A stretch of 64,000 nt of DNA from an uncultured Pseudomonadota bacterium (GCA_963843375.1 CAWJKT010000009.1:224001-288000), one strand, 5' to 3'. Numbered from the stretch's first letter, positions 18,001-48,000 are shown. Numbers are program-made.

Positions 18001-21000
18001 TTGGATTTTGGTGGCAATCGGGATTAAGTTTTCTTCACCTGGTCCGGTTCTTTTCCACCAAAAGCGGGTGGGCCGGGACGGAAGAGTATTCCATATGCGG
18101 AAATTTCGTTCGATGACCGTAGGTTCGGAAACGGTTGCATTTACGAAAAAAGACGATCCCCGAGTAACGCCTTTTGGGGCATTCCTCCGCAAAACAAGCT
18201 TGGACGAATTGCCCCAGTTATTAAACGTGATAACGGGCCGCATGAGCCTAGTGGGGCCCAGGCCTGAGGTGCCAGGGTTGGTAGAGAAATTCGAGAAGGA
18301 AATCCCACGTTATTTCGAACGGCACCAGGTTAAGTCGGGCATCACCGGCTGGGCCCAGGTGAACGGATTCCGGGGAAATACGTCCCTTCATGAGAGAGTT
18401 AAATACGACATTTATTACATCGAAAACTGGAGTTTGCTTCTGGATATCAAGATCATTCTCAGGACTGTTTTGGACATTTTGGAACATGAGAATGCTTATT
18501 AAAAATGGTGATATTAAATTTGGTTCTTCAGTTCGAATCCAACAAGAGGACCCTTAGTGGACAGCAATTTTAAAGGGATTTGCCATGAAAAAACGTATCG
18601 TGTTCAGCTTGATGTTTATTTTCTTCTCAAGCCGGATTTGTCTTTCCGAATCTTCCTTGGATTCCGTAACATACCAAAAGGGTAAAAAAGCCGAGGACTC
18701 AAAGGATTTTATCCAAGCTTTAAAGTGGTATCAAAAAGCCGCATCAAATGGAAACGCAAGCGCGGAAAACGCCTTGGGTCATCTTTACTTACGAGGTGAG
18801 GGAGTTCCACAGGATTTACAAAAATCAATGGAATGGTATCGGAAAGCAGCCAAGCAGGGAGACCCTGAGGGGGAAACTAATGTTGGACACGGTTATGCCA
18901 TGGGATATGGGGTGACCCGGGATTACCATAAGGCACTGGAGTGGTACTTAAAAGCTGCCGCCCTTCAGAACGGCCGGGCCGAATTTTTTATCGGGGTAAT
19001 CTATACCAATGGTCTTAGAGTACCAAAGGATTACAAAAAAGCCATGGATTGGTTTCAAAAATCCGTCGCACATGGAAATAAAGAAGCCCCCTCTTGGTTG
19101 CCGATCCTTAAAAAACGTATAGCAAGTGGAGAAGTTAATTAATTTCAAAATTATAAAGGCCCCCTCTGGAAATGAGTATCAAAAGGTTGTCCACGGCGGG
19201 GACCCAGCATGGACAGGGAAATGTGTGGACATCATCCGTACGTTCATGTATGCTTCTTTTGAGGGTAAGGGGGGGTTATGGCTACAGTCACACAATCAAG
19301 GGAACAACGAATCGAAATTCGTATCCGACCGAAAGACAAGGCTATGCTGGAAAAGGCCGCCTCGATCTTTGGGCTGAGCCTCAGTGCCTTCATGCTATTC
19401 AATTCTTTGAAAGCGGCCCAAGAAGGGCTGACGGCTCAGAGCCGTATCACCCTTTCGGAAAACGAGTGGAATTCCTTCATGAAAGTCGTGGAGCACCCGC
19501 CCCGCCCTAATAAGGCCCTTCTGGCTCTCGCTAAGAAGCATAGCCGCGCTTGAGCCATTCTGAAAAACCTTTGGATATCGACGTTCTGCCAATCTCCCGC
19601 CATTTGGACTTGGGGTCTTTCGATAGCGGCGCACAGGCACTGAATGACTATCTCCAAAAATATGCCCGGCAAAATCACGATAGGAATATTAGCAAGACCT
19701 TTGTGGTCACGGAAAAAGAGGGAAATCGGAAGGTTTTGGGCTTTTACACGTTAGTTGCCTCCGAAATTGACGCCAAAACAATTCCTACAACCCATTCTAA
19801 ACACCTTCCCCGTTACCCAGTCCCTGCCGTAAGAATTGGAAGGCTTGCGGTAGACAAGCATCACCAGGGCCTAGGGATCGGTGAAGAACTTTTATGGGAT
19901 GCCCTTGGTAAAGCCAATCATTTATCCAACGAGGTCGGCATTTATGCCGTCGTGGTTGACGCTAAAGATGAAAAAGCTGCTCGCTTTTACCATAAATACG
20001 GGTTCGTTCCATTATCCAATAATCCTAAAACACTTTTTTTGCCTGTCGAAACGATAAAAGCTCTATTTACCAAAAAATAAAAGGATTATTGTCCTCGCAG
20101 AGGTTGTCCGCCACGGGGAGGTGTAATGGACAAGCAAATTGGAAAATTTGTTCCTTTTTAACCTAGAAAGTATATACTATTCGTATATACCATCAAAGGA
20201 GCACTAAGTGACTAAAGTCCTGTCCCTAAAAATTAAAGGTGAAATCTTCGAGGATGTGGAAGTCCTAACCAAACGGCTTCATATGCCCCGCAACACCTAC
20301 ATCAACGAGGCGCTGGATTTTTACAACGCTTTCAACAGGCGCAAAGGGCTTCGCCAAAAACTAAAAAAAGAATCCCTGCTCACGCGAAAGAATTCCATGG
20401 ACATTCTGAGCGAGATGGAAAAACTCGAAGAATCAACCGCTGAATGAAAATCAGGAAATTTAATATTTACCTGGCCGATCTAAGCCCGCGTTTCGGCACC
20501 GAGCCTGGAAAAACGAGGCCTGTCGTCGTTCTTCAAACAAACCTTTTGAACGATAGCCTGCATCCCAGCACGATCATCTGTCCCATCAGTACCAACGTCG
20601 TTCACGGGGCAGAGATACTTCGTGTCCGCCTTCCGAAGAAGGAAACGGGCCTTCGAAAAGATTCCGATATTTTGGTCGATCAAATACGGTCCATTGATAA
20701 CCGCCGATTCGTCAAGCATTTGGGGGAATTGGGCCCGATCGATAAGGCGAAGTTGATTGAAAACCTTAAAATTCTTTTATTTGAATAAACCAATCAGGGT
20801 TGTCCACGGCGGGGACCCGGATTGGACGATGGGGAGGACAAATATCATGGGCAAGACCACGGTCATCAGTTTTGTGACCCTCGATGGGGTCATTCCGGCG
20901 CCAGCTAGACCGGATGAAGATATACGCGGGGGGATCACGCGAGGTGATCGCGGGCTATTGACTGACACCAATATTCAAACTCGAGCTAAGACTTTGTCTG

Positions 21001-45000: not shown

Positions 45001-48000
45001 TAAGAAATATCTCGCTTGGATTGAATTTAAAGGGATGAATCTAAAAGAGGCCTCCTGTGTTTAAGTTATCAATGATATCAATTTTTATTTTTGCCGCACA
45101 AATCACGTTCGGCGGAGAACTTCAAGCAATAGTTTATTGTAGTGGTACTAATGAGGATGATTTGGGGTTGTGTAGTATCTCGCCCGAAGGTACAAAGCAC
45201 TCCTGCTTAAATGATCGAGATCATTCACTTTTAAATAATCATTATTCCTCTCCAGCTTGGAAACCCAAAAGCAAAGAACTTGTGGTCGAATACGCAAAAC
45301 CTGATGGGGATCGAATACTGGAATTAATTGATGGCCTTGGGAATAAGATTCGCGAAGTTAACAAATCCTTTAATTTTATGAGACCCGTTTGGAGCCCCGA
45401 TGGGAGCCACATTTATGCGTTGAAGTATGGGATAGGGCCACAAATAGGACAATGGGATTCAAATGGGATGAACTTTAAATTTGTACCCATTGTGGGCGCG
45501 CCTAACAACACGAACGCCCCTAATAGCCAAGGTGATTTTCAAATGATTTCTTTCAGCCCTTCAGGGAAAAGCGTCGCTTTGCTCAACTACGGGTTCAAAC
45601 AGATCATTGTAGCTAGTGTGAAAGAACAACAATTTGTCGCTCAAAAAGAACTTCCGACGAATTTTAATTACGTGGCCCAGTCGGCATGGCTTGATGAGAG
45701 TCATTTGCTATTTGTCGGGAGGTTAAATCCGGGGGCTGCCAATCTTTGGGAACTGAACATTGGGGATGGTTCTACGCGTTTAGTGGAAATTCCTAACCTT
45801 TCGCTTCAGGATTACTTTGCCCTCTCGCCGGATCGAAAATCAGTTGTTGTTTGCGCGACAGAAAAAAATCAAAATTTGTGTTGGAGTCTTTGGGAGTATT
45901 TGTTGGGTTCTCCCGCGGCCAAGAGACTTACAACAAGAAATCTGGATTCCGGCCCTACCTGGGGGGACTGAGTATTAACGGTTGCAAAGCTTGTCCACGA
46001 CGGCGACCCCGTTCGACTCGCTAAGCTCGCTCAGGGCAAATGATAGGTCGTCCAATCTGGGGACCCGGAGTGGACAGAAGAAAAAAGGATTGAATTTCTT
46101 GTTTAATGTCGCGAGGTGTTGATGCAATTCTTCAGAATAGATAAAAAAATCATCCTTTTAGTGGTTTATGCACTTCTGCAAGCCATTGGGATGAACCATG
46201 GTGTTTGGGCAGATCCGGCAGGCGTGTCCACTTCAAAAATTCAAAATGACGATCCCTGCGAAGACTTTATTCGCCAATGGATTGACGGGAAAAATAAAAC
46301 CATTCCAATCAAATTACGTGAGAGGATTCAAAAATATTTAGGGAAGGAAGTTCTCTATCCTCCGCCCATTTCCACAAAAGAGGCTCCCTTTTTTCTTCCG
46401 AAACCTAATGAAATACGGGCTAGTTTTAAAATGGTGCCCTATGCTGATGCAGAATACCAATATAAGATCGATTCTGAATTTATAGCCGCGGGGGACATGG
46501 TTGAAACGAGATATGGGAAATCACCCGTCACCTTCATGCTACATAACGTCTTTTCTTCATTCATCCAAAACCATACTTACTTCCTGGTGAATTATGAGAA
46601 AGACGATTCGGAAACGGACTCAACCGAATATTACAACCTCTATTTGCAAACATCCCCAAAAGCAGTAAGTGAATTAGTTCACGGCGCTTCCCATATTGAC
46701 TTTTTCACTCTTGGAAAAAATTCACCCATATTTGTGGTGGAGGAAAGCCAAACATTTGATGCACATTTCAAAGGTGGATTTTATCAGGTAAGGGGAGATG
46801 GAACCTTAAAAGAGTTGCAAAACTTGGAAGCCTTTAAAGTAAGTTGGGATATCGCTGATTTTGAGGGAAATGGTAATTCGGAACTCATGGTAAGTGAGGA
46901 GATGGACGTCCCCAAACGACCGACTGATTGTAAGGGACATGGAACCTGTTTTTTTCGCGAAATGAAGATCAAAAAATGGGACGGCGTCCAATACGATACG
47001 ATCGCAGATTATTTCTACATTGAACCCTGTGATGTTGTTAGATAGAAATAAATTAAAGTTGTCCACGGCGGGGACCTGTCGTGGACATGCAAAATGGGGC
47101 TAGACCTGACATTTCACCGGATTGCCACGGGGCCCCGGGTTTGATATAAGTATGGTAAGTAGTGCCATACTATTGGGGAGGCGAAATGAAAATTACAACC
47201 CATATTGACGAAGCTCTCTTACGGCAGGCGAAACGCAAAACGGGTATCGTTTCTCAACGGGAAATCCTGGAAACCGGCTTACGTAACTTATTGGCGGATA
47301 TCCAAAGAAAAAGTTTCGTGAAGGATTTTGATAAGTTCCGCCTTGATCTCACACTCAATTCACTCAAAGGATCCAGGGGTTGAATCAGCTTTATCTGATT
47401 GACAGTTCGGCCTGGATTTTTGCGTTGGGTTCCAGGCCCCTGGAGGCCATACGAACGCGGGTGAAAGAATTGGTGGAAAACAATCTTGCAGCCATTACCT
47501 CACCTATCTTCTTCGAGCTTGTTTCTTCCGAAAAATCTCAGGCCCATTCGACACTATTGGCGGCGCATTTATCGGCCCTTCACCCTTTCCCCTTATTGCC
47601 AAATGAGTGGGCGGAGGCGGCCGAGTGGACTAGAGAACATCGCCAAAAAGGGCGTAAATTAAAAACGGTTGATGCTTTGATTGCCTTTAAAGCGTATAAA
47701 CACAATCTGACCCTGGTTCACGCTGATGCGGACATGGACAGGATTGCAAGCCATTCCAAATTGGAAGTGGAAAGCTATGTCCGGCAGGTTCGCTCTGTCC
47801 ATCGGAGCAGTTAAAGTTGTCCATGGCGGGGAGGCGAAATGAAACACTTTTGTTCTAGAGGTGTCTACCACCGGAAGCCTTCGAGTGAATTGCTGATCGA
47901 ACAAAAGGATTCGAAAAAAAGTGAAACCTGATCAAAATAAAAAACCATCTCCTGTTTTGAGGACGGTCGTCGAGATGGGGTTCATTATTTTTCTGTTTTA

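Follow-up and report, generated by a model that had tools for sequence, protein, structure and literature searches.

The locus analysed here raises the question of how a block of small gene units, punctuated by one short palindrome, came to stand inside a polysaccharide cluster, and which enzyme would move such units. The window is the whole stretch of 64,000 nucleotides taken from contig C9 of an uncultured Pseudomonadota bacterium from soil (genome G000), and positions count from its first letter. The core flanks, both on the + strand and assigned by Pfam, are a bacterial sugar transferase of the polysaccharide cluster (17009–18502; Bac_transf, 238 bits) and an NAD-dependent epimerase with a nucleotidyl transferase (48163–50157). 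From the transferase end at 18502 to the epimerase start at 48163 they lie 29.6 kb apart, compared with ~700 bp in G021, 540 in G051, 180 in G033, 109 in G055 and 58 in G047. The block is absent in all five relatives asked, bearing out the survey's finding that this array is an insertion. Homology to G021 (its contig C4) extends as far as 18542 on the left and restarts at 48162 on the right. The left junction site (18536–18563, + strand; AATCCAACAAG AGGACC CTTAGTGGACA) joins a tRNA-Asn-like native left half, which matches the empty-site motif of the relatives (GGTTCGAGTCCAATCCGGGGAG in G021), to a cassette-type right arm. At the right junction (47818–47845, + strand), a cassette left half, TGTCCATGGCG GGGAGG, is followed by native sequence. 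The block 18536–47845 is best explained as one among several arrays of small mobile units on the chromosome.

A scan of the window with the full 28-mer at ≤3 mismatches found 10 distinct places, against none in 100 dinucleotide shuffles. When only the outer arms and centre were fixed (17 letters, ≤3 mismatches), 21 sites were found, spanning 18536 to 47087, so the 14 counted before for this array were an undercount; four more places (32445, 44907, 45992 and 47818) hold a left half only. As shuffles yield 0–5 matches at ≤5 mismatches, the weakest window sites are not individually significant. Genome-wide there are 64 sites at ≤6 mismatches (27 on C6, 25 on C9, five on C18, three on C10 and four singles) or 73 by the looser rule, in agreement with the ~67 copies first reported, and 52 of the 64 form arrays on two contigs. 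The sites do lie behind co-oriented genes, as had been proposed: by crude ORF calls, 54 of 66 are preceded by a co-oriented stop no more than 200 nt away (median 31 nt). Within the window, 24 of the 25 sites at ≤5 mismatches are on the + strand, and in an array on contig C2 of G021 all 13 sites share one strand, with single ORFs between them.

The units, assigned by Pfam and by their sites, lie on the + strand unless stated. The first two (18585–20132) carry a Sel1-repeat protein (site 19188–19215) and a GNAT acetyltransferase (site 20105–20132, degenerate); the GNAT unit, 19188–20119, was found again in metagenome loci at 88% identity, with both ends at sites. A small antitoxin-like ORF with a MazF/PemK toxin (20208–20828; PemK_toxin) closes with site 20801–20828, in which an A-type left arm meets a B-type right arm (CGGATTGGACG). 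The large units (21007–28513) encode an AraC regulator, a GH16 protein, a malectin-domain protein, an NHL-repeat protein and a 444-aa protein without a family; their sites are 25527–25554 at the malectin-domain protein, with a good left half, and 28486–28513 at the NHL-repeat and 444-aa proteins. An SDR reductase (site 30233–30260) and a penicillin-amidase-family protein (left-half site 32445–32462) occupy 29416–32462. Comparison of sites revealed an ORF-less mini-unit at 32445–32563, composed of an A-type left half, a 73-nt insert ending CTCAGGGCAAATTATAGGT and a site with a B-type left arm, CGTCCAATCTG GGAACC CGTCGTGGACA; this build is repeated at 44907–44991 and 45992–46076. Four toxin–antitoxin units (33201–36023) have sites at 33201, 33991 (RHH and PIN), 34710 (VapB and PIN), 35371 (BrnT and RHH) and 35996 (small ORF and BrnA), and the unit 35371–36024 was found elsewhere at 86–92% identity, again ending at sites.

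Two ORFs without a family, of 437 and 292 aa, are called at 36228–38533. The array's only inverted site (37806–37833, TC centre on the + strand) falls within the call of the 292-aa ORF, which may therefore not be real; the next site is 38506–38533. An opposite-strand unit (38565–39966, − strand) with DoxX, a 157-aa ORF and an ArsR-type regulator closes with site 39939–39966 on the + strand, and a unit of mixed strands (40077–42421), with a TetR regulator (−), an SDR/epimerase-like protein (+) and a 212-aa protein without a family (+), closes with site 42394–42421. A PIN_3 unit (site 43172–43199, right arm CCAAAGGAACA) and a unit of PIN_3 with a HicB-like protein (site 43987–44014) fill 42723–44014. 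Three units at 44303–47087 carry a 136-aa ORF (half-site 44907, site 44964), a PD40-repeat protein (half-site 45992, site 46049) and a 309-aa protein without a family (site 47060–47087). The last unit, VapB and PIN (47162–47845), ends at the right junction; its VapBC recurs in arrays of G033, G047 and G055 at 78–80% identity, and the homology stops inside the site.

Other genomes and metagenomes contain single units at 85–97% identity, and the homology breaks at the sites: of the 20 ends belonging to uncut matches, 17 fall no more than 13 nt from one. This upholds the earlier view of the arrays as stores of one- or two-gene cassettes. In contigs assembled from public runs, no recombination was observed, and the joints at sites are repeat artefacts. 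These comparisons show that a unit consists of a variable right half-site, the cargo, and a conserved left half-site with the centre (TGTCCACGRCGGGGACC), so that neighbouring units share one 28–30-bp site, and that exchange between genomes proceeds one unit at a time. The unit 43172–44015, for example, recurs in metagenome locus L034 at 88% identity, and its unusual right arm has moved with the body behind it; as a counter-case, one shared unit has different right-arm types in different genomes (C6 47247 versus L015). Units measure 0.5–8 kb; they occupy at least seven loci, and a single genome has as many as ~98 sites. A census of the arrays gave 662 distinct ORFs, the largest cluster having 11.

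To see what kind of enzyme the site would suit, its layout has to be considered. Arm pairing spans 13 nt, and the only asymmetric positions are 14–15 (GA), with G14 in 294 and A15 in 296 of 298 sites. Information reaches a Y…R pair at positions 0 and 29. The palindrome is identical across the genera compared and found in one family of the phylum. Judged from sequence, a 13-2-13 layout, perfect arms around an asymmetric GA, fits equally well as 11-6-11; by geometry alone, these inverted half-sites around a 2-bp asymmetric dinucleotide have the layout of serine-recombinase crossover sites, in which the central dinucleotide sets orientation, as part of PMC3783163 describes. A tyrosine recombinase with a 6-bp overlap matches this geometry too. 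At inner positions the right arm (0.5–0.9 bits) is much less conserved than the left (1.2–1.7 bits), which would not be expected of a simple symmetric dimer site.

The survey had linked no recombinase to the arrays, a statement that is overturned by a short serine recombinase whose gene abuts the site. In all 11 copies that keep their 3′ end, from eight genomes (G021, G066, G064 with four, G077, G051, G080, G000 and L031/L292), a convergent site lies 18–60 nt past the gene end, measured from the alignment end, and at 7 of the 11 the gene-side arm is a special one, CAAAAGGAACA or a near variant. The G000 gene (C9:137160-138005) shares its contig with the window, from which it lies ~105 kb upstream, and a group II intron interrupts the site adjoining it. 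In contrast, none of 12 other serine-recombinase loci (≤55% identity), among them four full-length proteins of 507–559 aa, has a site within 1.5 kb. Beside the palindrome, no enzyme gene was found other than that of the shortened serine recombinase, which belongs to a plasmid-like element: ArdC lies upstream of the gene in G064, G077 and G000, RadC in G077 and G000, and the G064 element has a TraG P-loop ATPase. In G077 a 7-kb recombinase element stands inside an array, flanked by two co-oriented sites; apart from a DDE IS transposase, it encodes no further recombination enzyme.

The protein, of 275–283 aa, has Resolvase (residues 13–159) and Recombinase (187–271) domains by Pfam. It keeps the YVRVSSKEQ and DRLYRN motifs, including the catalytic Ser motif, and pairwise dN/dS is 0.08–0.16 (the 7 of 10 pairs in which dS is not saturated); it looks functional on these grounds. 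The 19 database clusters at least 74% identical to it are all of 275–283 aa, the next matches being at most 61% identical, and none of the 19 has the zinc-ribbon family PF13408. The protein stops immediately ahead of the CGHCG motif that its paralogues have, and no C-terminal half turned up separately in the DNA searched. It lacks the C-terminal zinc-ribbon domain with coiled coil that is a feature of large serine recombinases. In passages of PMC3783163, the recombinase and zinc-ribbon domains jointly contact a 25-bp half-site, and the coiled coil governs direction.

Taking site and enzyme together, we consider it on balance probable that the short serine recombinase operates the arrays in trans as an integron-like store of cassettes. 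The cassette site would be a serine-recombinase crossover site with 13-bp inverted arms, its asymmetric GA setting polarity, and the enzyme a lineage-specific short form that has the Resolvase and Recombinase domains without zinc ribbon or coiled coil; its gene is part of a conjugative-plasmid-like element (ArdC, RadC, TraG-type ATPase) and terminates directly at a site. Units would be cut out by this enzyme as circles and put back at any site, or at a pseudo-site like the tRNA-Asn-like stretch of the polysaccharide cluster; units that carry no recombinase would be served in trans. The missing zinc-ribbon/coiled-coil part would account for the short site and the apparent absence of an attP/attB distinction. 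The five genomes with an intact copy have 22–75 left-half sites and most genomes without one 0–18, a weak comparison because related genomes are not independent. G051 has the most sites (98), yet only fragments of the recombinase. The adjacency could also mean that a recombinase element merely employs array sites for its own attachment, the small units being moved otherwise or being fossils.

If the serine recombinase were a mere neighbour, another recombinase would move the units in trans, for which six paralogous tRNA-island integrases or an unrecognized enzyme are candidates. We regard this as unlikely, albeit with some points in its favour. No homologue of the short recombinase was detectable in G033 (99% complete, 31 sites), G055 (98%, 40), G063 (90%, 34) or G061 (89%, 38), so 31–40 sites persist in genomes without it, which also counts against the reading preferred above. 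G000 has 14 tyrosine-recombinase matches, including the six paralogues at 58–66% identity; arrays lie near tRNA genes (C6, tRNA-Thr; C15, tRNA-Phe; C18, tRNA-Ser), and the empty site resembles a tRNA-Asn 3′ end. However, within the flanks examined a tyrosine recombinase was found at only two genome loci and at none of 141 metagenome loci, the paralogues stand in ordinary xis-int-tRNA layouts with different core sequences, and tandem XerCD-like pairs in G055, G051 and G047 have no site within ~5 kb. No Y1 (RAYT) transposase was found in G000.

Less likely still, the palindrome may be a REP-like element or a terminator hairpin that rides with accessory genes, the units being exchanged by homologous recombination between repeats or within larger islands. 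Its GC-rich stem and its place shortly behind stop codons (the median of 31 nt given above), co-oriented with the upstream gene, would suit such a role, and an identical 28-bp repeat could allow rare RecA events. Against this, neither reading shows a T-run behind the site, and positions 29–36 are A-rich; pairing is not protected, with 325 of 3278 arm pairs non-pairing, and top-strand G-T wobbles are not in excess (101 versus 154 A-C). Hybrid sites with an A-type left and a B-type right arm recur, for which exchange within the 8-bp common centre is needed. The sites are restricted to islands missing from relatives and to the one family, and in place of a genome-wide intergenic spread, 52 of 64 sit in the arrays on two contigs. 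The RAYT family PF01797 is absent from G000 (80% complete).

The host's single Xer recombinase acting at dif-like 11-6-11 sites, much as for Acinetobacter dif modules or Xer-exploiting elements, is the mechanism first proposed for these arrays. It is very improbable: in all six genomes examined, the 5′ end of the Xer-like gene bears an AT-rich 11-6-11 palindrome of its own (ATTTCATATAA CTATAA TTATATGAAAT in G000), which agrees with the cassette site in 3 of 11 arm letters and whose arms vary between genera (G021: GTTCGGTATAA) in which the cassette site is constant. The two palindromes have only geometry in common, and no array adjoins the Xer-like gene. The 11-6-11 reading is formally possible, and the family has one conserved Xer-like gene (66–73% identity in 5 of 5 relatives). 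The pdif sites of Acinetobacter are similar to the host dif, with neighbours in alternating orientation, whereas the sites here are unlike the putative dif, co-oriented (24 of 25 in the window and 13 of 13 in the G021 array) and chromosomal. The likeness lies in small modules, often toxin–antitoxin, bounded by 28-bp sites of 11-6-11 type and without an enzyme gene of their own; parts of PMC6449649 and PMC13141974 describe XerC/XerD modules shuffled at pdif sites on Acinetobacter plasmids, and PMC6449649 includes toxin–antitoxin cargo among these Xer-dependent modules.

Compared with other known systems, the arrays share with sedentary chromosomal integrons and CALINs mostly single, co-oriented and highly diverse ORFs with a recombination site behind each (54 of 66 sites; 13 in the G021 array), a cargo rich in toxin–antitoxin and acetyltransferase genes, and several arrays without a nearby enzyme gene. 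By TIGR02249 no integron integrase, a tyrosine recombinase with an IntI-specific insertion, was found, as already noted by the survey: the best match in G000 has 47.5 bits against a cut-off of 265, and none of five near-complete relatives reaches it. While attC sites are imperfect palindromes of 55–140 nt recombined as a folded single strand, the site here is a 28-bp near-perfect, often perfect palindrome (28–30 nt in all), with no wobble-pair strand bias and no sign of strand-specific folding. There are also many arrays per genome, and the serine recombinase gene converges on the downstream end of its array, in contrast to divergence from attI. The group II intron inserted in a site is a further likeness, since group IIC-attC introns insert in attC, as part of PMC3001079 reports.

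With staphylococcal cassette chromosome (SCC) elements the arrays share serine recombinases of the large family. SCC units, however, are tens of kb at one locus with full-length Ccr enzymes, whereas here units of 0.5–8 kb occupy at least seven loci and the enzyme has no zinc-ribbon/coiled-coil part. SCC and composite islands also resemble the arrays as tandem-stacked elements, recombinase-less units included, bounded by repeated integration-site sequences; parts of the sources describe ACME-SCCmec in tandem (PMC5964201) and SCC integration at rlmH (PMC13739063). In CIME/IME tandem accretion, too, recombinase-less units lie beside a recombinase-bearing element with a common attachment site, and the tRNA-Asn-like native target here is another likeness. 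Those systems have tyrosine integrases and a few large units at one tRNA locus, in contrast to dozens of single-gene units here, with a palindromic site that does not copy a tRNA.

Finally, we put forward tentatively, as possible but short of probable, that the arrays belong to a cassette capture platform in which a large serine integrase, reduced to the catalytic and the recombinase domain, acts on a minimal 28–30-bp 13-2-13 site and serves many arrays in trans. With no built-in direction control, such an enzyme would both insert and excise single-gene units. If true, this would be an integron analogue, independently invented with the other recombinase superfamily.

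The palindrome TGTCCACGACG-GGGACC-CGTCGTGGACA is real and far exceeds chance, occurring at 10 distinct places in the window at ≤3 mismatches against none in 100 shuffles. Under a looser rule, in which the outer arms and the centre are fixed and the rest is free, the window holds 21 sites from 18536 to 47087, and left-half-only sites at 32445, 44907, 45992 and 47818. The genome as a whole (G000, a MAG that is 80% complete, with 4.05 Mb on 32 contigs) carries 64 sites at ≤6 mismatches or 73 by the looser rule, grouped in arrays mostly on contigs C6 and C9. At 54 of 66 sites a co-oriented ORF stops ≤200 nt upstream, with a median distance of 31 nt. 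The sole inverted site of the window array (37806-37833) lies inside a 292-aa ORF call without a family, so that either this ORF is spurious or the segment is inverted. The site is restricted to one family: its left half and centre are present in 28 of 31 genomes of that family (0-98 copies each), compared to 0-1 per genome elsewhere in the phylum. Scans of public genomes and metagenomes returned at least 156 and at least 153 stretches with the site, respectively, and the viral contigs scanned had no copy.

The arrays are made of separately exchanged units bounded by this one site. Single units were found again at 85-97% identity in other genomes and on metagenome contigs, and in the 10 matches uncut by a locus end, 17 of the 20 match ends fall ≤13 nt from a site; the last VapBC unit of the window is present in other arrays of three other genera. 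The survey's finding had described a palindrome between genes, behind co-oriented genes and in arrays that store mobile one- or two-gene units, and the shuffles, the ORF placement and the single recurrence of units bear this out. The unusual right arm CCAAAGGAACA (window 43172) moves together with the unit behind it. A unit thus consists of right arm, body and left arm, as exchange at the centre predicts, with one pair (C6 47247 versus the fetched locus L015) as an exception to this rule. When the crossover point was read from arm variants, most of the few pairs available fit centre exchange and one does not. Three joints in Logan contigs (38532>39942, 39966>43987 and 36350>36719) were considered as evidence of excision and rejected, as their short side of 26-29 letters is the repeated site itself.

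The cargo is diverse, with 662 distinct ORFs in arrays and fetched loci and a biggest cluster of 11. In the window it includes toxin-antitoxin types (three VapBC pairs, BrnT/BrnA, MazF, and PIN_3 with a HicB-like protein) as well as GNAT, DoxX, regulators, a penicillin-amidase-family protein, glycoside-hydrolase and lectin-type proteins, and several ORFs without a family. PADLOC detected no defence system among the 37 window ORFs, its sole hit being an ArsR-type helix-turn-helix protein that resembles Csa3. The GH16-domain call (22338-23684) and the malectin-domain call (23194-25467) overlap by ~490 nt in different frames, which points to a miscalled start or to a frameshift.

The window array occupies a polysaccharide locus where the sugar transferase on the left and the epimerase on the right are 29.6 kb apart. 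The same flanks are separated by ~700 bp in G021, which is of the same genus, and by ~540 bp in G051, ~180 bp in G033, ~109 bp in G055 and ~58 bp in G047, so the array is indeed an insertion that relatives lack, as had been reported. The empty site in G021, GGTTCGAGTCCAATCCGGGGAG, resembles the 3′ end of the G000 tRNA-Asn, and ARAGORN found no tRNA in the window. The left junction (18536) joins a native left half of the empty-site type to a cassette-type right arm, and at the right junction (47818) native sequence follows a cassette left half with GGGGA. As both junctions are hybrids of native and cassette sequence, exchange took place inside the common centre, and the block is inserted into this tRNA-like pseudo-site. 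Separately, GGGGAGGCGAAATGAAA occurs twice, at 47175-47195, where the last vapB has its ribosome-binding site and start, and at 47825-47845, directly after the right-junction half-site; the latter copy is similar to the sequence at the native start of the epimerase gene in relatives.

A short serine recombinase with Resolvase and Recombinase domains is strictly linked to the site. It is encoded in G000 (C9:137160-138005) and G021 (C2:163827-164660) as proteins of 278-281 aa that are 77% identical. Searching the whole family turned up intact copies in G000, G021, G066, G064 and G077 and 5′-truncated remnants in G064 (three), G051 and G080, and further copies lie in the fetched loci L020/21, L031 and L292. 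All 11 copies that keep their 3′ end have a convergent site 18-60 nt past the end of the alignment, the gene-side arm usually being CAAAAGGAACA; 12 other serine-recombinase loci were checked and showed no site within 1.5 kb. The earlier statement that no recombinase is linked to the arrays can thus no longer be held. In G000 a group II intron interrupts the recombinase-linked site (C9 ~135166-137106; positions 1167-3107 of L368); it was recognised by a match to the D1-D4 model Rfam RF02003 and a 458-aa RT/maturase ORF. The intron sits exactly between left arm and centre, with exon ends TGTCCACGACG|GTGCG... and ...|AGGAGCCATCGTGGACA, and recalls the group IIC introns that integron attC sites host.

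The short form corresponds to the first ~275 residues of full-length paralogues, its end falling just short of their zinc-ribbon motif. Its dN/dS is 0.08-0.16 among the five intact copies, and the 19 database clusters nearest to it measure 275-283 aa without exception and lack the zinc-ribbon family. The short enzyme is therefore a maintained form and not a random truncation. A gene split across an attachment site was rejected at the loci examined: 17-36 nt separate the stop codon from the site that follows, and no detached C-terminal zinc-ribbon half turned up in the DNA searched, which took in the surroundings of the arrays. Upstream of the recombinase gene are ArdC (G064, G077, G000), RadC (G077, G000), HigBA-like genes and DUF2958, and in G064 an 854-aa TraG-P-loop ATPase; such neighbours mark conjugative or mobilisable elements. 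In G077 a 7-kb recombinase element within an array is flanked by two co-oriented sites, and the recombinase-bearing element is therefore itself one array unit.

GGGACC is palindromic apart from its middle GA, so the site can be read as 13-2-13, or 14-2-14 with the flanking Y...R. The 13-2-13 layout is that of serine-recombinase crossover sites, whose polarity is set by the central dinucleotide alone according to a passage in PMC3783163. From this layout and the gene linkage we infer, with slightly better than even confidence, that the short serine recombinase cuts the site at GA and, acting in trans, mobilises the units that have no recombinase. Loss of the zinc-ribbon/coiled-coil module would then account for the short site and for reversible, undirected recombination. 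Against this stand four genomes, G033, G055, G061 and G063, which hold 31-40 sites with no detectable short recombinase, and G051, which has 98 sites and recombinase fragments only. Nor does it account for the asymmetry of the arms: the inner right arm is far more variable than the inner left. A second discrete arm type, B, also recurs, chiefly as the right arm; its sequence is TGTCCAATCYG, or CGGATTGGACA where it stands on the right. The window also contains three ORF-less mini-units of one common build (32445-32563, 44907-44991 and 45992-46076), each with a left half-site followed by a 40-73-nt insert, which closes with the conserved GCTCAGGGCAAAT(T/G)ATA(G/A)GT, and then a site whose left arm is of the tRNA-like B type, CGTCCAATCTG.

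A tyrosine enzyme acting at the site is compatible with the site geometry alone. G000 has 14 tyrosine-recombinase matches, of which the best Xer-like protein (C10:182366-183469) is encoded once and is shared with five of five relatives at 66-73% identity. In all six genomes examined the 5′ end of its gene carries an AT-rich 11-6-11 palindrome of its own, perfect in G000 (ATTTCATATAA CTATAA TTATATGAAAT, C10:182387-182414), reading GTTCGGTATAA TTACAG ATATACCGAAC in G021 and ACTTGGTATAA TTACAG TTATACCGAGT in G055, with similar versions in G051, G033 and G008; the G000 arm type occurs in 1-2 copies per genome in 6 of the 31 family genomes. Gene-linked dif sites are known from single-Xer systems, and this palindrome is probably the dif site of such a system. 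Its arms change with lineage and the cassette site is constant in the same lineages, a pattern that is difficult to reconcile with recognition of both by a single enzyme; the proposal that Xer acts on the cassette sites as dif is not supported by this comparison. The reported lack of an integron integrase stands, with no IntI at the family cut-off in G000 or five near-complete relatives.

Tyrosine recombinases are almost never near the sites, being found close by at two public-genome loci among the matches listed and at none of the 141 metagenome loci listed. Six of the 14 matches in G000 are paralogous integrases (~368 aa, 58-66% identical; C6:226038, C8:84965, C9:31181, C11:206672, C11:49933 and C8:179354) in ordinary xis-int-tRNA layouts, each preceded by a gene for an Xis-like HTH protein and followed by a tRNA gene or tRNA fragment, and relatives have similar sets. 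Three more of the 14 are consecutive tyrosine recombinase genes, a recombinase-in-trio element (C8:95063-98359); the trio beside an array in G047 was rejected as the mover because this mobile trio is present there in several copies. An integrase on C2 of G021, 5.5 kb from an array, belongs to a tRNA-Ser island and was likewise discarded. Conserved tandem XerC/D-like pairs (309-368 aa) behind a 750-770-aa ORF occur in G055 (C26, L370), G051 (C97, L371) and G047 (C8, L372), three genomes without an intact short serine recombinase, and were rejected as they have no palindrome site within ~5 kb. An RNA or terminator hairpin is rejected, since across 298 distinct sites, where pairing fails in 325 of 3278 arm pairs, gene-strand G-T wobble is not favoured (101 versus 154 A-C) and the downstream flank is A-rich, not T-rich.

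Cassette capture is known as a speciality of integrons, which use a tyrosine recombinase and folded attC sites; dif modules that rely on Xer form a second case, though an unproven one. In the literature searched, which left most subscription journals outside its scope, we found no description of a system like the one proposed here and none of a natural large serine recombinase without a zinc ribbon; matches for serine recombinases with integron-like cassettes concerned integrons or tyrosine recombinases only, and the entries that surfaced for the host phylum were community surveys. A natural serine recombinase pared down to the minimum, acting on a 28-bp site and lacking control of direction, would be of interest to genome engineers, who seek compact landing pads (PMC12774650). 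Cassette stores run by a serine recombinase would escape integron-finding tools, and so would widen the range in which to search for them. If true, a serine-recombinase version with single-gene units would mean that the cassette-store design has evolved more than once.
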